From the NCBI GenBank assembly GCA_019745315.1, contig JAIETH010000002.1, positions 98,306 to 162,305 on the forward strand: DNA of 64,000 bases, read 5' to 3'. The notes beneath the pieces are model-generated. The model was not told where the DNA came from, did not search any database, and saw only the letters and a list, made by a program, of their open reading frames with translations. The stretch comes from Patescibacteria group bacterium (GTDB lineage Bacteria; Patescibacteriota; Minisyncoccia; Phycocordibacterales; UBA918). Below are positions 4,486 to 35,412 of this stretch, one piece after another. Positions within the stretch are counted from its first letter, which is position 1, and every line of letters starts with the position of its first letter. Made by a program: the position numbers and the translations under genes.

Positions 4486-4980
4486 TTGTATTATATACCG
4501 ATGCGTAAACTATGGAATCGTCCAAGCGTCCCAGTGTGGAGTCTTGTAACTCGAGATACAGATGGGAACATAAATATGAATATTTGTACGTATGTAACGA
4601 GCATATCGCTGCAACCAAAACTCATGCTAATTGCTCTCTATGCAGGCACAAAGACACTCAAAAATGTACTAGAAACCAAACAGGGTCTCCTGCAACTCTT
4701 AACAGAAGAACTGGCTCCTGTAGTCCGAGTATGTGGACGCACAACAGGCCATACGACTGATAAAATAGCGCGCCTGAAAAAACGGTATCTCCTAAGTGAA
4801 GTCGACGGCTTTTTGTATTTTACTCAAGCAGCTGGATATGTGACTCTCTCTTTTAAAGATGTGATCTCGACCGAAGGAGATCACATACTTGCGATCGCCG
4901 AGGTAATACATACAAAAAATCTGAATGACCTACCCCTCCTCACAACAGACTACCTCAAGAAACATAAATTCGTTCGGTAA
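4486..4980 (+). CDS. Flavin reductase-like (FMN-binding split-barrel) domain protein
   Basis: Motif VPVWSLVTRDTDGNINMNICTYVTSISLQPKLMLIAL resembles the flavin reductase/DIM6-NTAB family. Confidence 0.5.
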   Translation: MYYIPMRKLWNRPSVPVWSLVTRDTDGNINMNICTYVTSISLQPKLMLIALYAGTKTLKNVLETKQGLLQLLTEELAPVVRVCGRTTGHTTDKIARLKKRYLLSEVDGFLYFTQAAGYVTLSFKDVISTEGDHILAIAEVIHTKNLNDLPLLTTDYLKKHKFVR

Positions 4981-5039: not shown

Positions 5040-5059
5040 CTGGGCGGCTACAGTGAATC
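5040..5059 (-). repeat. Direct partial copy (20 bp, 1 mismatch) of the 3' end of tRNA-His
   Basis: ctgggcggctacagTgaatc here versus ctgggcggctacagGgaatc at 5218-5237. Confidence 0.8.
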
Positions 5060-5154
5060 CTCCTTTCCCAAATAATTTCTGTCGTGAACGACTTAGAAAT
5101 TATTCTCCTTAGGAGCCTAGAACTTTTGCTCAGACCAATGGCGCAAAAGTTTCC

Positions 5155-5177
5155 TTCGATTCCCTGTAGTCCTGCCC
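5155..5177 (+). repeat. Inverted partial copy of the tRNA-His T-arm/acceptor 3' half (ttcgattccctgtagtcctgccc)
   Basis: matches tRNA-His 3' half GGTTCGATTCCCTGTAGCCGCCC but sits on the opposite strand. Confidence 0.65.
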
Positions 5178-5293: not shown

Positions 5294-5414
5294 ATCTCTC
5301 AACACCCCAATATAGAGGTATCTATTTATAACGATTTTACAGCTAAAAGTCGAGGACTCGCGTATCTATACTCAAAAACAAAAAGAGCCGACCGAAGTCG
5401 GATCTTTTTATTAG

Positions 5415-8566: not shown

Positions 8567-8706
8567 GCGATAAGGGACTTGAAGAGCGGAAGAAAACAGT
8601 CTGGGAGACTGTTTTCTGAGCTGGGGTCGAGAGCACTTAGACTTTTGCGAATACTTGGAGCAAAAGTCTAAGTGACTCGTGACCAAGCCCTCTCAATCGA
8701 GCCTCG

Positions 8707-8752
8707 CTTTCTCGGTCGGTAACTCACCTTGTTCGTGTCCTCCCGGCAGGAA
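8707..8752 (-). repeat. 46-bp perfect direct repeat, copy 1. It comprises the 3'-terminal 15 nt of tRNA-Arg(TCT) plus 31 bp of its 3' flank, and continues into a degenerate T-arm-like sequence.
   Basis: ctttctcggtcggtaactcaccttgttcgtgtcctcccggcaggaa is identical at 8856-8901. Confidence 0.85.
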
Positions 8753-8827
8753 GTTCGAAGTTTACAACTTCAGTACAGGTTGTCGCCATTTTGATTCGTA
8801 AAAACTCTCAAAATTGCTGGCAACCTT

Positions 8828-8886: not shown

Positions 8887-8958
8887 TCCTCCCGGCAGGA
8901 ATCGAACCTACATCAAGAGCTTAGAAGTCTCCTGTTCTATCCATTGAACTACGGGAGG
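8887..8958 (-). tRNA. tRNA-Arg (anticodon TCT)
   Basis: Reverse complement reads CCTCCCG TA GTTC AATGGATA GAAC A GGAGA-CTTCTAA-GCTCT TGAT GTAGG-TTCGATT-CCTGC CGGGAGG A. There is one A/G mismatch at the base of the anticodon stem. Confidence 0.75.
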
Positions 8959-8964
8959 AATACA

Positions 8965-9372
8965 CTACTCTACCTTAATACCCCCAGTCTGCAAATCGAC
9001 TGTGGATTCTTCTTTTGCAGGCGTAGATGTTCCAGAAGTGGTTGTACTTATGGACGACTCCTCGGGAACGACCTTTATATCGAGCGCCTTAAATCTTTCT
9101 AATCGCGCACCATATTCTTGCACCATACGCACAACAAGATCCTCATCGTACGTCACATCAAGAGCCACATCCCCATTTACAACACCCTCATCAACCTGCT
9201 TGAGCGCAGAAGAAAAAAGTATATAGGCATACGACGCCCCCGCACACACGAGAGTGACCGCTAAAAGTACTCCTAAAAACCACTCACGTTCTGGGTATAT
9301 TTTTCTAAACTCACGAAAGCTCAATCGAGACTTATACGCTTCTATTACTTTACGGAAATTCCATTTCATCAT
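8965..9372 (-). CDS. Hypothetical membrane-anchored protein, last gene of the pilMNO operon and a possible PilP analogue
   Basis: N-terminal transmembrane segment (WFLGVLLAVTLVCAGASYAYILF), Thr/Ser-rich tail; only the operon position suggests a role. Confidence 0.4.
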   Translation of the reverse strand: MMKWNFRKVIEAYKSRLSFREFRKIYPEREWFLGVLLAVTLVCAGASYAYILFSSALKQVDEGVVNGDVALDVTYDEDLVVRMVQEYGARLERFKALDIKVVPEESSISTTTSGTSTPAKEESTVDLQTGGIKVE

Positions 9373-9905
9373 AGCGGTTTCTTTTTTACTACTGCAACCT
9401 CGAGAACACCTTTCCAATCTACTTCCTCACCTAATTCATTAGTCTGACTTAGAGAAACATTCATGACCTCAGACTGGTACGGTAAAGATTCAATAACTGG
9501 AAGAAACGCTTGGAGCTCGTCATACGCACCTGAAAGCTCTAAAGAAATATTGAGTGTTTCAAAATTAGTCACATCCTTTATCGGCACCACCTCAACGGAT
9601 TTAATTCGTGCTTCAAGCCCTTGATGTCGCGCGGCGCCTTCAATCAAAGCAAGTACATATGCTACATCCTCATGGGCAACCACAAATTCCGATAAGATTT
9701 TTCGATTCTCCTCTGAGTCTATATACATTTTTTCCAGCTCAGCAAACTGCTGATCACGCGCAACGCTTTCAGCATGAGCACGTGCCTGCTCTTTCACTTT
9801 TTTATCTTGTCGATTAACTTCATACAAAAGTCCCCCGTAAACACAAAGCGAAATACCTAATACGAGAAGCGATGTGAGGAGTATTTTTTTTGCAAACGGC
9901 GTCAT
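9369..9905 (-). CDS. pilO: Type IV pilus assembly protein PilO-like
   Basis: 178 aa, N-terminal transmembrane segment then a coiled-coil periplasmic domain; sits directly after pilN. Confidence 0.6.
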   Translation of the reverse strand: MTPFAKKILLTSLLVLGISLCVYGGLLYEVNRQDKKVKEQARAHAESVARDQQFAELEKMYIDSEENRKILSEFVVAHEDVAYVLALIEGAARHQGLEARIKSVEVVPIKDVTNFETLNISLELSGAYDELQAFLPVIESLPYQSEVMNVSLSQTNELGEEVDWKGVLEVAVVKKKPL

Positions 9906-12530: not shown

Positions 12531-12634
12531 GTAGACAGCAGAGAGAAAGCTCTGGGAGAGCATTCGTGAAAGATTCGAAAAGGTTGTCGAGATTTTCTGA
12601 AAGAAAATATCATACAACCTGAACAGAATTTGTA

Positions 12635-12660
12635 GAATTCGAATCTCTCCTCCTCCGCCA
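12635..12660 (+). repeat. Direct copy of the last about 25 nt of tRNA-Ser, including CCA, 138 bp downstream of the gene
   Basis: gaattcgaatctctcctcctccgcca here versus gagttcgaatctctcctcctccgcca in the gene. Confidence 0.85.
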
Positions 12661-12667
12661 CAACAAT

Positions 12668-14913: not shown

Positions 14914-15142
14914 GGTATGCTGGGTTTTATCGTATTTGCGTAATAGTAAATTCGAGCAGGAACTCTCCTTACAGGAGCTGTACACCTTTTGGATATTTTT
15001 GTTCGTTTTGTGAACTCTAAAAATATCTCAAAAGGTCCTGCGAAATCCTTTTACAAAGGCGGTATACCTTACAGACTTTTCCTTGAAAAGATCTGTAAGG
15101 TCTTGCGACATGCTCCCAGCATGTCTCACCCCGCACTTTCTC

Positions 15143-15253: not shown

Positions 15254-15387
15254 GTTTAGTGAAGCGGAGCTATGTCGCCCCGCGACAGGCGAGCTCGGGC
15301 AGGAGCCGCTTAGCATCTTTCCGAATACTTGGAGGAAAGTGCTTAGCGAGCTGACGCCATACTTGTGCTCGAGAGGAAGCGCGGGGC

Positions 15388-15410
15388 GCTTCCGTGCAGG
15401 AATCGAAGCC
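15388..15410 (-). repeat. Inverted T-arm-like fragment (reverse complement ggcttcgattcctgcacggaagc) downstream of tRNA-Arg(GCG)
   Basis: near-identical to 8828-8847; lies within a GC palindrome gaagcgcggggcgcttc. Confidence 0.6.
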
Positions 15411-31231: not shown

Positions 31232-31320
31232 TCACTTTTTTGTAAGTGGTGACATTTCACAAAATACTGGTATAGTGGACGCGAGCGTAAGCTCTTTTTT
31301 GTTTTGTAGAAACAAAAGAT

Positions 31321-31500
31321 TATATCCGCCCGTGGCTCAGTCAGGTAGGCGTAGAAAGTACCCCGCACTTTCTACCCTTTTAAGGAGAAGATCTTCATCC
31401 AAACACAATATATCCGCCCGTAGCTCACATCAGTGAGCGTAGACAGCATCCCATGCTCTCTACCCTTTTAACGAGAAGGTACATTTATCGTTAACACATA
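31321..31500 (+). repeat. Two tandem units of about 89 bp, each a degenerate tRNA-Lys 5' half carrying a 9-11-bp hairpin insertion and an anticodon-loop-like CCCTTTTAA(G/C)GAGAAG, immediately upstream of the intact tRNA-Lys
   Basis: Units start atatccgcccgtGgctca (31321) and atatccgcccgtAgctca (31409); the gene starts atccgcccgtagctca (31501). Hairpins are gtagaaagt-acccc gc-actttctac and gtagacagcat-ccc-atgctctctac. Confidence 0.8.
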
Positions 31501-31502
31501 CA

Positions 31503-31578
31503 TCCGCCCGTAGCTCAGTCGGTAGAGCAGCTCCCTTTTAAGGAGATGGTCGTAGGTTCAATTCCTACCGGGCGGACC
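31503..31578 (+). tRNA. tRNA-Lys (anticodon TTT) with encoded CCA
   Basis: CCGCCCG TA GCTC AGTCGGTA GAGC A GCTCC-CTTTTAA-GGAGA TGGTC GTAGG-TTCAATT-CCTAC CGGGCGG A CCA. Confidence 0.85.
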
Positions 31579-31618
31579 AAAAGAAAAAACAGCACGCAGG
31601 TGCTGTTTTTTCTTTTGG
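31576..31618 (+). terminator. Long intrinsic terminator after tRNA-Lys
   Basis: ccaaaagaaaaaacagcac-gcag-gtgctgttttttcttttgg. Confidence 0.85.
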
Positions 31619-31739
31619 TCCGAAACAGAGCCATGTCGCAAGGCGACGGCGAGTTGGGGTCGCGAGATTTTCTTTAGAAAATACTCGTGACGACCTTTTA
31701 GCCCGAGGCGCAGCTATGTCGCTTTTGCGACCGCGAGTC

Positions 31740-31778
31740 GGGATCACAAATAAATTTCCGTAAGGAAATTTATTTGTG
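31740..31778. other. Perfect 17-bp inverted repeat (ATCACAAATAAATTTCC-gtaa-GGAAATTTATTTGTGAT) 3' of holA. A terminator or protein-binding palindrome.
   Basis: exact palindrome, AT-rich. Confidence 0.5.
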
Positions 31779-31799
31779 ATGACAAATTGTCCGAGCCCC

Positions 31800-32495
31800 C
31801 TACACCCGAAGCAGAAACCTCTCTAAATCAATACTCATATCGCCTTCGCTATGCCCTCTATGGTACACAGCAAGGAGTGAATTTGATATATCCACCAGAC
31901 TTTCTTTGGTAAAGAGCTTGAGAGCGCCCTTTGCTTTCTTATACGGATACTCTTTCATACCAGCTTGCTCTGCACTCTGTGCAACAGTCACTAGCAGTAA
32001 TGATTTAATTTGCCAAAACAACACTCCTGCAACCTCTTCTGGTGAAACACCTGAAGCATATGCACGCATAAGCAATACCCATAAAGACTTTTTATCTCTT
32101 CGCAAAAAAGCGTCAGCAAGTAGAAATGTGTTGAAGCCTTCTTTTTCATCACGCTCTTCGCTCTCTGTATATTTCTCAGCATGAATACGTAATTTTTTTT
32201 CATACGCTGCCCGAGGTTTGGTATCAAGTAAAACGAAGACCCGTTCTGACTGTGCGTAAAGGTCAATATCTTCCTCAAATGATTCAAGGGCTCCATCTGC
32301 TTCAGAGAGAAAGTCGAGAACTACAGGACCAGGACTCTCTCCAAAAAGAGATTGCGCGTATACATGATCAATGAGCATGCCTGGACTATATGACTCTGCA
32401 GTTATACGAACCACCTCTCCTTCCAATGTGTCTAAAAAAACATGCGCATCTTTTCGCACAACAACACCGTCATTACCTACAAATACATAGAGCAT
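31800..32495 (-). CDS. holA: DNA polymerase III delta subunit-like (HolA-like), short form
   Basis: 231 aa; the position immediately downstream of polA and the helical clamp-loader-like C-terminus suggest the call. The sequence match is weak. Confidence 0.4.
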   Translation of the reverse strand: MLYVFVGNDGVVVRKDAHVFLDTLEGEVVRITAESYSPGMLIDHVYAQSLFGESPGPVVLDFLSEADGALESFEEDIDLYAQSERVFVLLDTKPRAAYEKKLRIHAEKYTESEERDEKEGFNTFLLADAFLRRDKKSLWVLLMRAYASGVSPEEVAGVLFWQIKSLLLVTVAQSAEQAGMKEYPYKKAKGALKLFTKESLVDISNSLLAVYHRGHSEGDMSIDLERFLLRV

Positions 32496-32519
32496 ACAAA
32501 AAGTGAGCTTACTACCATT

Positions 32520-34946
32520 TTATGTGAGGTCTTTTTTAATTTTCTTCATATCTCCCCAGCTAGCTCCGACCGCAACCTCTGCAACAATTGGTACACCCTC
32601 ACGTTTCTCGTGCGGCAAAACTTCTTCCAAAATTTCTTTTATCTTCCATATAGGAGCACGGTCGCCCTCCCTAACTTCAAATACCAACTCATCATGAACC
32701 TGCAAAAGCATGTGAACACCTTCGATATTTTTTAAATAGTCATCAATACGTATCATAGCAACACGAAGCATATCCGCTCCTGTACCCTGAACAGGGGCAT
32801 TAATCGCCATGCGTTCAGCGCTCGCTCGCACAAACGGTATAGTTGAACGAATGCCTGGGAAATACCGACGTCGTCCAAAGAGAGTTTCGGTGTACCCATG
32901 CTTGTATGCAAACGCCTTCGTGTCTTCAAGATACTGAGTAAGTTTAGTAAACGTATGGAAATATGCATTTAAGAACTCCTGCGCCTCAGCACGCGTTGTG
33001 CCTTCTCCTAAATTGGCACGGAGCGCATTAACCCCCATACCGTAGAGAATACCGAAGTTGATGACTTTTGCTTTCCTGCGCATCTCTGCATCAACTTTTT
33101 CTTGAGGCACTCCAAATACACGCGATGCAACACCGCTATGTACGTCTTCGCCTCGTGCAAAAATCTCAATGAATTTCGGATCACATGAAAGGAATGCAGC
33201 GATACGCAACTCAATCTGAGAGTAATCGATTGAAACCAGCTCAAAACCTGGAGCGGCAATAAATGCTTTTCGAATAGCTCTCCCCTCTTCCGTGCGAATA
33301 GGAATATTTTGGAGGTTAGGATTTTGAGAAGACATTCGTCCTGTTGTTGTACCTGCCTGAAGAAAGGTTGTATGAATACGACCATCTGCGCCAACAAGTG
33401 TAGGCAAGCTGTCGACATACGTAGAAAGGAGTTTTTGTAACTCTCTATATCTAAGAATCTGATCAATAATAGGATGTTGATCTCGCAACTTTTCGAGCTC
33501 TGACTCTCGGGTCGAACGCTGTCCCGTAGCAGTACGTTTTTGATTTTTTACTCCGAGACCAAGCACATCATACAAAATGTCCCCCATTTGTTTTGGTGAA
33601 TTAATATTGAAGACCTGCCCTGCAATACGATGAATCTCATCTTCTTTTTCTTTTAATTCTTTATGGAAAATAACCGAAAGCCCCTTGAGATACTCAATAT
33701 TAAGAGTAATTCCATACTTCTCCATAGTACGCAGTACAGGCATCAGTGGAACTTCAATATCTTCATATACTTTTTTTAACGAGAGACGATCAAGTTCTGC
33801 AAAAATAAAAGCTTTTGTTTCAGAAAAATTTGACGCCTTCCCTTCGGTGCGCCCAAATTCCAAAATTTCTTCTAACGTAGGATTTGTAGTATCTGATCGC
33901 AAAACCCAGAGAGCCAAGGCTGTGTGTGCAACTTCATCTTCAGGAATCACCTCCTCTTCTTTTTGCTGCTCCTCTACAAGAACACCTCCAAAGAGCGTCC
34001 TAATGCGGTCAGAGAGCGTCCGGAAACCGAGCTCTGCAAAAAGCGTAAGCACAACCTCTGTATCGAGAGCTTCGCGCCACGAAGTATGTGGCAAAACAAA
34101 GTCTATCGGGGCGTCTATTCGTATAGTAGCGAGCATCTTAGAAAAACGCGCCTCTTCTTCATTATCTTTGAGGAGATTAATGATTCGAGGAGTGAGACCC
34201 AAGCGCGCAACAGATGCCTCATCCTTCTTAAGCACAGCGTACATTTTTTCTATAGTGCGGTACTCAGAAATTAATATGGTTGCTGTTTTTTCCCCAATAC
34301 CCACAATTCCAGGAATATTATCTGAAGGATCCCCACGCAAACCCTTATAGTCAGGTATTGATGTCGGCCCAAAACCAAAACGCTCAACCACAGCTTTTTC
34401 ATCATACATAACGGTATCTTTTATACCCTTCCGTAGGGTATACACCTGCACACGAGTACCCTCAATGAGTTGGAGGGTATCCATATCTCCCGAAGCAATA
34501 ACAACATCAATATCTTTTCTATTCTTCATCGTATGGGCAATAGTGCCGAGCATATCGTCTGCTTCGAAACCACCATATTCGACGAGCGGAATACCGAAAG
34601 CCGCAAACACATCTCGAGAACGATTTATCTGAGCAACAAGAGCTTCGTCCGTCTTCACACGTCCGGCCTTATACCCCTCAAATGCCTGATGTCTGTAGGT
34701 TGGCTCAGGCAGATCAAAACATGCAACGATATATGTGGGCTTAAGTTCTTCGACAATCTTTAGCACCATTGTCACAAGGCCGTAGAGAGCGCCCGTCGGC
34801 TCACCTTTTGGAGAAGCGAAATCAGGGAGAGCGTGGTACGCGCGGTGCAATATTGCATGAGCATCAAGCAACACAAGGCGCTCTCGCGTAGCGTTTTCTT
34901 TTTTTACACGAACCTTCGCGCTTTTTTTTGAAACAGAGTCAGTCAT
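32520..34946 (-). CDS. polA: DNA polymerase I (5'-3' exonuclease plus polymerase domains). Start taken at MTDSVSKK.
   Basis: 5' nuclease motifs (LVLLDAHAILHRAYHAL, GIPGIVGIGEKTA); pol motifs A (DYSQIELRI), B (RRKAKVINFGILYGMG) and C (QVHDELVFE). Confidence 0.9.
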   Translation of the reverse strand: MTDSVSKKSAKVRVKKENATRERLVLLDAHAILHRAYHALPDFASPKGEPTGALYGLVTMVLKIVEELKPTYIVACFDLPEPTYRHQAFEGYKAGRVKTDEALVAQINRSRDVFAAFGIPLVEYGGFEADDMLGTIAHTMKNRKDIDVVIASGDMDTLQLIEGTRVQVYTLRKGIKDTVMYDEKAVVERFGFGPTSIPDYKGLRGDPSDNIPGIVGIGEKTATILISEYRTIEKMYAVLKKDEASVARLGLTPRIINLLKDNEEEARFSKMLATIRIDAPIDFVLPHTSWREALDTEVVLTLFAELGFRTLSDRIRTLFGGVLVEEQQKEEEVIPEDEVAHTALALWVLRSDTTNPTLEEILEFGRTEGKASNFSETKAFIFAELDRLSLKKVYEDIEVPLMPVLRTMEKYGITLNIEYLKGLSVIFHKELKEKEDEIHRIAGQVFNINSPKQMGDILYDVLGLGVKNQKRTATGQRSTRESELEKLRDQHPIIDQILRYRELQKLLSTYVDSLPTLVGADGRIHTTFLQAGTTTGRMSSQNPNLQNIPIRTEEGRAIRKAFIAAPGFELVSIDYSQIELRIAAFLSCDPKFIEIFARGEDVHSGVASRVFGVPQEKVDAEMRRKAKVINFGILYGMGVNALRANLGEGTTRAEAQEFLNAYFHTFTKLTQYLEDTKAFAYKHGYTETLFGRRRYFPGIRSTIPFVRASAERMAINAPVQGTGADMLRVAMIRIDDYLKNIEGVHMLLQVHDELVFEVREGDRAPIWKIKEILEEVLPHEKREGVPIVAEVAVGASWGDMKKIKKDLT

Positions 34947-35412
34947 TATGTATGCCAAACACCTTAACGTTTCGCACCCCATCCCCCACAACAATAAAGT
35001 CTATATGGAGGGTTTCTTTGAGTGCGGCATGCATACGCTCAACCCATTCAACCACAACAAGAGAGTGCTCGCTACTAAGGATATTCTCTATATCAAGAGA
35101 ACGAAGCTCGCGAGCATCTTCAATGCGATACGCGTCCATGTGAATAAAACTGGCAAAATCAGGGTGTGTGGTTGTATATCGTTTTTGTATTACAAATGTA
35201 GGACTTGTTACGATTTCAGCAACTCCAAGAACTCGAGCAAGAGACTGACTAAATGTCGTTTTGCCTGCGCCTAAATCTCCAGAAATTCCACACACAGTCG
35301 CCCCTATCTTGGGACGGTGACGTAGAAGCATATCAAGAACCTCCGAAGCAAATATATCGACTTCTGCAAGGGTGATGTTTTTTTCTACGAGAAGAGATAG
35401 TGTTGGATCCAT
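34939..35412 (-). CDS. tsaE: tRNA threonylcarbamoyladenosine biosynthesis protein TsaE (YjeE P-loop ATPase)
   Basis: GDLGAGKTTF Walker A, SPTFVIQKRY; the start is uncertain (internal Met MDPTLS used). Confidence 0.75.
   Translation of the reverse strand: MDPTLSLLVEKNITLAEVDIFASEVLDMLLRHRPKIGATVCGISGDLGAGKTTFSQSLARVLGVAEIVTSPTFVIQKRYTTTHPDFASFIHMDAYRIEDARELRSLDIENILSSEHSLVVVEWVERMHAALKETLHIDFIVVGDGVRNVKVFGIHND

Follow-up and report, generated by a model that had tools for sequence, protein, structure and literature searches.

Fragments of transfer RNA (tRNA) genes left by mobile or recombinational activity are a known theme. The rtT repeats of the Escherichia coli tyrT locus are 178-bp tandem units downstream of the gene that carry the 3′ 19 nt of tRNA-Tyr, contain no palindromic plug, and are co-transcribed. 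The known attachment-site (att) duplications of integrative elements copy the 3′ part of a tRNA and flank an integrase-bearing element. Also familiar from bacterial genetics are quasipalindrome template-switch mutations and tandem inversion duplications. In phages, SegB, an endonuclease of the GIY-YIG type, cleaves within tRNA genes, and the tandem amplification that it drives through homologous recombination is unstable (PMC2330249; PMC13096335). Here we describe a variation on this theme in a 64-kb stretch (the window) of contig JAIETH010000002.1 from a Patescibacteria group bacterium, where an intact tRNA-Lys(UUU) gene is preceded by two tandem units, U1 and U2, each a 5′ fragment of that gene interrupted by a palindrome that we call the plug. 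Such plugged 5′ arrays are new to the theme, and they are neither ordinary tRNA pseudogenes nor a known leader RNA. Related and comparison loci are labelled L001 to L141.

Each of the described systems resembles this locus in part. Like the rtT repeats (Rfam RF00391), the units are tandem, lie next to a tRNA gene, and each contain a piece of that tRNA; unlike them, they are upstream 5′ fragments and have no Rfam match. Integrative-element duplications also place truncated direct tRNA copies beside an intact, regenerated tRNA, with variable copy number and patchy occurrence in relatives (PMC9897764), but here the copied part is the 5′ portion plus leader, the copies follow one another directly at intervals of 88–90 bp, and a palindrome interrupts each of them. 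Template switching and tandem inversion duplication find their like in a loop inversion between strains, in perfect Watson–Crick palindromes, and in tRNA 3′ ends arranged direct-inverted-direct; alone, they leave unexplained why plug sequence is shared across loci and lineages and why a nuclease gene is associated with plugs elsewhere. T-box and other tRNA-related leader riboswitches share a structured, tRNA-related leader with a hairpin near a U-run; unlike them, this leader copies the tRNA instead of complementing it and precedes a tRNA gene rather than an mRNA, and we found neither a specifier nor a T-box sequence in it, nor any Rfam match at E ≤ 10.

The comparison with SegB runs through other genomes of the candidate phyla radiation (CPR). 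Just as the SegB gene lies among the tRNA genes of the T4/T6 clusters, three CPR loci (L141, L133, and L065) show tandem arrays of a nuclease gene plus a tRNA piece. SegB is a phage-borne protein of ~220 aa with a DNA-binding part that amplifies whole tRNA genes, whereas the CPR proteins are chromosomally encoded, span 85–90 aa with the catalytic domain only, and accompany pseudo-tRNAs with a constant palindromic plug. The window differs further in having no nuclease gene.

Two plugged 5′ fragments precede an intact tRNA-Lys gene

The intact tRNA-Lys(UUU) gene, with its CCA encoded, occupies positions 31504–31579 of the plus strand and is recognized by ARAGORN and by Rfam (RF00005, 71.7 bits). 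Upstream on the same strand, a repeat search and Tandem Repeats Finder place U1 at 31326–31413 (88 nt) and U2 at 31414–31503 (90 nt), both of which align in register with the tRNA. A unit comprises a few leader bases, an A segment, a 25-nt palindromic plug that replaces the 5′ strand of the anticodon stem, a C segment, and a spacer of 20–25 nt. In U1, the A segment (A1, 31326–31350) corresponds to tRNA positions 1 to ~25, the plug (31351–31375) reads GTAGAAAGTAC-CCC-GCACTTTCTAC, the C segment (C1, 31376–31393) corresponds to positions 30–48, and the spacer spans 31394–31413. In U2, the A segment (A2, 31414–31438) contains a D-arm-like 6-bp hairpin and is followed by the plug GTAGACAGCAT-CCC-ATGCTCTCTAC (31439–31463), the C segment (C2, 31464–31481), and the spacer (31482–31503). 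The acceptor stem of the tRNA begins at CCGCCCG, so the AT that precedes it belongs to the leader.

Tandem Repeats Finder reports a repeat at 31321–31524 with a period of 88, 2.3 copies, and 76% matches. The repeat search finds TATATCCGCCCGTRGCTCA in three in-register copies spaced by 88 and 90, and likewise three copies of CCCTTTTAA(G/C)GAGA. The motif ATCCGCCCGTRGCTCA occurs exactly three times against 0.37 occurrences expected from shuffles even at three mismatches, and TCTACCCTTTTAASGAGAAG occurs twice against 0.01 expected; both are absent from the remainder of the window. Both motifs thus far exceed the shuffle expectation, and the repeat is confirmed. We found no further copies of the A, C, or D segments elsewhere in the window or in the other loci with this type of plug that were examined; the only distant match to the D segment, located ~22.6 kb upstream, belongs to the T arm of tRNA-Arg(tct).

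A sequence-only reading of this stretch had described a tRNA-Lys(TTT) preceded by two tandem 5′ fragments that carry a hairpin insertion, have no T arm, and leave only the third unit as an intact tRNA, all of which our analysis bears out. Within U1 and U2, ARAGORN calls no tRNA and Rfam gives no match at E ≤ 10. With no detectable cloverleaf, the two units are not functional tRNAs; their anatomy is that of non-functional 5′ pseudo-fragments of the tRNA-Lys(UUU) gene. Besides the start of the acceptor stem at CCGCCCG, two details of that description need adjusting. The hairpin was said to replace the D-arm/anticodon-stem region; the 5′ strand of the anticodon stem is indeed replaced, but the D-arm 5′ strand and D loop are kept, and what the hairpin takes over is position 26 together with the last part of the D stem and the anticodon-stem 5′ strand. 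The hairpins were also called perfect at 9–11 bp: U1 does have nine perfect base pairs, followed by an A·C mismatch and one further pair, and in U2 a single C·C mismatch accompanies 11 pairs, so neither hairpin is perfect throughout.

The units occupy a conserved tRNA leader

Upstream of U1, a promoter-like block on the plus strand (31249–31276) consists of a −35 element GTGACA, a 16-nt spacer, and a TG-extended −10 element TATAGT. It is the best sigma-70 match of the region (10/12 plus TG), and the pattern TGACA-N16-TGnTATAGT is invariant in an alignment of seven related tRNA-Lys loci. A 5′ leader hairpin, GAGC-GTAA-GCTC (31283–31294), follows on the same strand and leads into a U-rich run ending at 31306; the hairpin is kept in the window and in L125–L131 with the GNRA loops GTAA, GCAA, GCGA, and GAAA. 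In L129, L130, and L131, the promoter and GNRA-hairpin block directly abuts tRNA-Lys, which on this alignment is the ancestral, unit-free state. In the window, L123, and L126, the units sit between that block and the tRNA, and they are therefore an insertion polymorphism inside the leader. Since they lie downstream of a conserved promoter and 5′ hairpin, the units are probably part of a transcribed leader of ~220 nt.

The same arrangement of promoter block, a 4–7-bp GNRA hairpin within 6–7 nt, and a U-run is found in the window at ~5330–5365, upstream of tRNA-His; the tRNA precursor would hence begin with a 5′-terminal hairpin at tRNA-His, at the window tRNA-Lys, and in L125–L131. None of the unit spacers contains the GNRA hairpin. 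The spacers are accordingly not copies of the ancestral leader, and the first unit cannot be accounted for by a plain tandem duplication of the basal locus. An earlier suggestion of leader duplication is therefore right in placing the units inside the leader but not in their derivation.

Unit number differs between near-identical strains

L123 represents a near-identical strain, with polA 99.9% identical over 1353 nt (3′ part, 0.1% divergent). It has exactly one unit: U2 is missing as a clean 90-bp indel, and the single unit is a mosaic of U1 and U2 features. As this near-identical, independent assembly carries U1, the repeat is not an assembly artefact. U1 and the L123 unit differ at 8/88 sites (9%), mostly in the C-spacer part, compared with 5.8% at four-fold degenerate sites of the holA-like gene, and because of this difference the C-spacer part shows no sign of constraint. 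Across 31800–34994, divergence from L123 is mosaic, with 0.1% in the polA 3′ part and 3.3% in the neighbouring holA-like gene, which suggests a recombination boundary beside the tRNA-Lys locus.

To obtain an unbiased sample, 16 tRNA-Lys loci were reached through polA/holA without reference to the repeat. The A-plug-C unit is present in three of them (L011, L123, and L126), a variant occurs in two (L125 and L127), and the rest have nothing. By these comparisons the units are dispensable and dynamic, because L123 lacks exactly U2 and relatives carry none, one, or several. Relatives with plain tRNA-Lys, which the sequence-only reading had named as evidence against itself, do exist (L129–L131, L001, and L003), but eight others carry units (L123, L126, L011, L038, L046, L055, L067, and L078). 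In the variant leaders of L125 and L127, a copy of the acceptor 5′ strand (CCGCCCGTA) pairs with a nearby complement to form an acceptor-stem-like minihelix, followed by a second AT-rich hairpin and GCTYCTCAYTT before the tRNA.

A pattern scan of metagenome contigs returned 102 loci; in ~20 of them, a single tRNA-Lys stands behind a copy of its own first ~24 nt that is not itself a tRNA. The synteny of the window is common to L038, L046, L055, L067, L078, and L101. The 5′ strand of a unit always matches its cognate tRNA, even where acceptor stems differ among lineages, and this implies gene conversion or recent formation. In all sequence examined, 5′ copies accompany only 2/206 non-Lys tRNAs; the Lys sample is biased by the search.

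The repeats also have practical consequences. Contigs of independent assemblies of this clade (L122, L123, L124, and L125) break in or beside the tRNA-Lys repeat region, which implies that the repeats disrupt short-read assembly, and units can be mis-called as tRNA pseudogenes or regulatory leaders. ARAGORN labels the tRNA-Lys(UUU) of L009 (10237–10310) “tRNA-Stop (tta)” through a one-base register shift, and the tRNA-Lys next to the unit of L101 (~6670) has CCTTTAAG, with one T missing from the anticodon loop, and is not called by ARAGORN; it could be a sequencing error or a pseudogene.

Plugs form a sequence family beside tRNA genes

The plug type of the window has the arms GAAAG/CTTTC, a variable centre, and a triloop CCC or GGG. 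A window scan found five such hairpins, in U1, in U2, upstream of tRNA-Arg(gcg), downstream of tRNA-Val, and downstream of tRNA-Ser; 5/5 flank tRNA genes, compared with 0 in shuffles. A set of 18 members, drawn from the window and from related loci, has 89.9% of its positions paired, compared with 60% in shuffles, and contains 65 double-sided changes; this result shows variation within a family rather than proving function, the set having been chosen as hairpins. Of the inner pairs, 137/144 are Watson–Crick and two are G·U, and loops occur in both orientations (CCC or GGG) between loci. On this sequence comparison, the plug is a member of a family and not a de novo palindrome. These features, together with the inverted terminator loop described below, point to DNA-level palindromes and template switching rather than to an RNA helix selected on one strand.

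Plugs interrupt tRNA-fragment copies beside the Arg, Val, and Ser genes of the window and in L124, L126, and L127. At tRNA-Arg(gcg) and in L003, L046, L124, and L126, the plug lies between a T-arm copy and an acceptor copy. It is the 3′ part of a longer conserved module, M, found beside tRNA genes, whose elements are, in order, a P1 hairpin with a covarying 4–5-bp stem and an invariant TTACA loop, C-N-GTAYACCTT, a second hairpin, AAGGTCTTGCG, the plug, and TCTCACC. The second hairpin is closed by ACCTT/AAGGT. In a fold of the module alignment, 7/13 pairs have double-sided changes. M has no Rfam match. Two copies lie at ~14962–15131, upstream of tRNA-Arg(gcg); others are found within the Lys units of L038, L046, and L055 (in L046, on both sides of tRNA-Lys, inverted) and in L126, L127, L013, and L005, with inverted copies downstream of tRNAs in some. 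The Lys units of the window are thus a single instance of a modular repeat system that surrounds tRNA genes across the lineage.

A second plug family accompanies small GIY-YIG genes

A second group of units carries a constant GC-rich plug, TCCGCCAGCTGGCGGA, at the same tRNA-Lys site, in the order GGTAGA, plug, CTTTTAAG; the consensus is (T/C)CCGCC-N4-GGCGG(A/G). The layout of tRNA positions 1–23, TCCGCCAGCTGGCGGA, and positions 32–46 adjoins open reading frames (ORFs) of 85–90 aa encoding GIY-YIG proteins in L032, L060, L065, L109, L133, and L136. In L032, L060, L065, and L109, an ORF whose product has a GIY-YIG catalytic domain (Pfam E = 3e-15) is found immediately next to the units or between them. 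Homologs of these ORFs are CPR proteins, and three of their genomic contexts (L133, L136, and L141) were examined. L133 (900–1560) has three identical upstream units, tRNA-Lys, the ORF, and a plugged full-length pseudo-copy with the original terminator; L136 (1090–1760) repeats the theme at tRNA-Lys(CUU). In L141 (743–2600; contig ERZ28493331 ctg4073947, 167 kb), tRNA-Met is followed by five tandem 351-bp modules of ORF plus pseudo-tRNA-Met, one of them frameshifted, in which the plug replaces positions 38–47. The plug also lies in a pseudo-tRNA-Thr of L098 (480–910), and the L065 cassette is located at 8900–9500. In these eight loci, from which we define the family of cassettes nested in tRNA genes (L032, L060, L065, L098, L109, L133, L136, and L141), the plug always replaces part of the anticodon arm. 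We found no description of small GIY-YIG genes with plugged pseudo-tRNA arrays in the searchable literature, and their association in CPR is apparently undescribed.

The window, L011, and L126 share their plug boundaries (~24–31, with flanks 1–23 and 32–46+) with L032, L060, L061, L065, L075, and L133, and the window shows the tandem units upstream of an intact tRNA that characterize the cassettes.

A proposed break-and-copy origin of the units

We favour, at about even confidence, the view that a break-driven segmental duplication which regenerates the tRNA left U1 and U2 as scars without an ORF, or that the two units are non-autonomous relatives of such events, rather than a regulatory RNA in their own right. 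When the tRNA-Lys gene broke or replication stalled around positions 24–31, repair would proceed by copying together with a portable palindromic module, leaving a plugged, truncated copy upstream and an intact, regenerated tRNA. Copy number would change when the process recurred or when the repeated 5′ segments crossed over unequally, and unequal recombination with gene conversion would maintain and resize the array. Transcribed within the leader, the units would be removed by the RNase P cut at 31504, and the plug may prevent the fragment from forming a tRNA-like anticodon arm. By analogy with the other CPR cassettes, the trigger may have been a small GIY-YIG nuclease. A dedicated RNA function is opposed by the patchy presence of the units, the indel between strains, C-spacer divergence at the silent rate, poor and non-conserved terminator features, and the DNA type of the palindromes.

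Several observations weigh against a break-and-copy origin. There is no GIY-YIG gene in the window: a hidden Markov model built from five cassette ORFs gave a best E of 0.14 in six frames, and tblastn returned nothing. Near window-type units, no GIY-YIG or other small ORF was found, and none of the ~12 loci with a window-type plug provides an ORF-bearing version. The two plug types are unrelated in sequence, and architecture is the only link between them. L038, L046, and L055 share a complex unit and have differing acceptor strands, each unit perfectly matching its own tRNA; the unit has thus persisted for long and evolved in concert with the tRNA, a pattern that selection could produce as well. 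In many spacers, a −10-like TACAAT or TATAAT lies 7–13 nt before the tRNA and hints at a role in expression.

A broader version of this origin is possible but doubtful: CPR may harbour undescribed selfish elements that nest in tRNA genes, with U1, U2, and the plug, M, and downstream R modules of the window as non-autonomous members mobilized in trans. If so, the autonomous form would be the 85–90-aa GIY-YIG gene flanked by host tRNA copies in which the plug replaces the anticodon-arm region; the plug could be the nuclease’s own site or an immunity determinant, and the elements would regenerate the tRNA and amplify in tandem. In a bolder variant, the host would keep plugged copies as decoys or repair templates that protect its single-copy tRNA genes. 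CPR genomes are extremely streamlined and have single-copy tRNA genes, yet most tRNA flanks here are interrupted tRNA-fragment arrays. Should these record nuclease- or break-driven copying that must restore the tRNA, they would represent a mobile-element strategy, and a source of genome instability, undescribed for bacterial chromosomes; the very recent phage SegB work is the sole experimental parallel.

Alternative explanations

The strongest alternative, which we nevertheless consider unlikely, is a functional cis-acting leader RNA: an attenuator (hairpin then CUUUUAA), a competitor for the 3′ acceptor strand, an element that aids processing or folding, or a decoy that draws proteins recognizing the tRNA-Lys 5′ half and anticodon loop. 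Position downstream of a conserved promoter suits such a role, as do a hairpin structure kept while its sequence changes and a 5′ strand and C segment that co-vary with the cognate tRNA across lineages; a minimum free energy fold of the whole precursor also pairs the U2 acceptor strand with the tRNA 3′ end. Attenuation is attractive for the GC-rich TCCGCC-type units, where CUUUUAAG directly follows the hairpin, but in the window type the U-run lies 2–6 nt away from the stem, it is GUUU in L126 and CUCUUAA in the tRNA-Lys(CUU) units, and it is absent from the Met and Thr versions; we rejected the attenuator on this ground. The terminator scan called no intrinsic terminator in the units, whose stems are AT-rich and separated from UUUU by CC(C). 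A patchy distribution, with a difference of one unit between near-identical strains, fits such an RNA poorly, and so do stems that are nearly all Watson–Crick, loops that flip between CCC and GGG, plugs that also occur in inverted fragments beyond terminators, a C-spacer part evolving at or above the silent-site rate, and the lack of a matching Rfam family.

Several specific forms of regulatory signal were also discarded. The distance of the C segment (CTTTTAAG) from the tRNA varies from 14 to 59 nt, contrary to its being the −35 element of a proximal promoter; AAGGAG in the C segment, a would-be Shine–Dalgarno sequence, is peculiar to the stem sequence of this tRNA and absent in other lineages; and an antiterminator in which the acceptor strand would pair with the plug is not conserved. 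A processing stem between upstream and downstream inverted modules at the RNA level is unlikely given the intrinsic terminators that lie between them.

Improbable, in our assessment, is an origin without any selfish or portable element, in which spontaneous template switching at hairpins during replication, akin to tandem inversion duplication, combines with unequal crossing-over and neutral drift. Downstream of the tRNA, a 23-bp perfect palindrome on the plus strand (31573–31622), found by the repeat search, forms the terminator, with its stem extended into the tRNA 3′ end CGGACCA. Its loop is GCAG in the window and the reverse complement, CTGC, in L123; such an inversion between near-identical strains is a textbook template-switch signature. 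The direct-inverted-direct tRNA 3′ ends, the terminator palindromes that extend into tRNAs, the exact one-period indel, and the near-perfect Watson–Crick palindromes agree with this process. It does not account for plug arms and flanks (GCG-GAAAG..CTTTC-TCTCACC) shared across tRNA loci and across lineages with 50–66% polA identity, which imply family copies rather than local inventions. Nor does it predict that the same tRNA-Lys site should hold two unrelated plug families, one travelling with a nuclease gene, or that 5′ copies should be so rare at non-Lys tRNAs.

Classic serial site-specific integration is decidedly improbable. A tyrosine integrase targeting the 5′ half or anticodon loop of tRNA-Lys would have left attL-type remnants that accreted in tandem and later lost their element bodies. 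The direct repeats of leader plus tRNA 5′ part, ending near the anticodon/variable region, do resemble att identity blocks; other tRNAs of the window have direct 3′-end copies 130–150 nt downstream, and tRNA fragments from integration are common (PMC9897764). In all window-type loci, however, only 20–55 nt separate a unit from the next copy, and no integrase, element body, or ORF between copies was seen, in a window not fully scanned for integrase genes. Recombination does not explain a plug inside the fragment, and on the right-hand side homology stops at differing points between positions 46 and 57. What is duplicated here is the leader with positions 1–48, as opposed to the 3′ portion duplicated at att sites, and the plug patterns occur on no phage or viral contig. 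An earlier proposal of serial-integration remnants is the closest in spirit to our favoured view but posits an integrated element of which no trace was seen, and the evidence points to a portable palindromic module with break- or recombination-driven duplication in place of att-site accretion.

A viral or phage origin was rejected likewise: the two plug patterns gave 0 matches in viral contigs, and phage blastn matched only the tRNA body. A first viral scan had yielded only phage tRNA arrays. Two of these, from IMG/VR (L016 ~4760–4890 and L017 ~9610–9730), contain isolated tRNA 3′ and 5′ halves, such as GTAGCTCAGTTGGTAGAGCAC with unrelated sequence behind it; these may be disrupted or split tRNA genes.

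The weakest reading, that the units are independent small-RNA genes, each with its own weak promoter in the preceding spacer, an end at the hairpin and U-run, and a ~55-nt mimic of the tRNA-Lys 5′ half acting in trans, is very improbable: each unit does have several repeated leader bases (AYATAT) ahead of its acceptor strand, hexamers resembling a −10 element (CACAAT and TATCGT) occur in the spacers, and UUUU follows the hairpin, but these hexamers are weak matches that the promoter scan did not call, the terminator features are poor, the units are dispensable between strains, and the palindromes bear the same DNA-level signature that speaks against a leader RNA. The small-RNA array proposed in the sequence-only reading accordingly found no support. 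A split or permuted tRNA, or an intron, was dismissed because the fragments have no 3′ partner and an intact gene is present, and GTAG palindromes like those of repetitive extragenic palindromes and their associated transposases (REP/RAYT) because GTAG comes from the D arm and plugs occur only beside tRNAs.

Flanking genes and tRNA 3′-end copies in the window

The flanking genes encode a Mur ligase, a DoxX-like protein, a holA-like protein of 231 aa (31800–32495), and polA. Relatives of this polA are metagenome-assembled genomes of Patescibacteria/CPR (Kaiserbacteria and Paceibacterota) with identities of at most 66%, and in most of their loci tRNA-Lys adjoins polA/holA.

The 5′ units had been regarded as the counterpart of 3′-end duplications at other tRNAs, and such duplications are indeed present. 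For nearly every tRNA of the window, the segment from T loop to 3′ end recurs 115–250 nt downstream, in direct and/or inverted orientation. These copies lie at ~5042–5059 and ~5154–5171 for tRNA-His, 8567–8584 for tRNA-Val, ~8737–8753 for tRNA-Arg(tct), where 30 nt of trailer are also repeated, 12634–12661 for tRNA-Ser, and 15396–15407 for tRNA-Arg(gcg). At tRNA-Val and tRNA-His, the inverted copy lengthens the terminator into a palindrome of ~30–36 bp.

Beyond tRNA-Lys, the repeat search and reading of the sequence identified two tandem R units of ~83 bp on the minus strand (31612–31790). Read on that strand, each combines a long hairpin with a T-arm-like piece, the small palindrome GTCGC-loop-GCGAC, and an acceptor-3′-like CGGAC(C)A; they resemble a plugged tRNA 3′ fragment and are probably inverted pseudo-3′ fragments. 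The family pattern is CCGAG..GTCGC-loop-GCGAC..GAGYTGGGGTCG..long AT-rich hairpin..ACTCGTGAC. Two R copies follow tRNA-Lys in the window and three to four in L123, and the family is also found in L129–L131 and, within the window, downstream of tRNA-Val (8618–8680) and tRNA-Arg(gcg) (~15255–15370).

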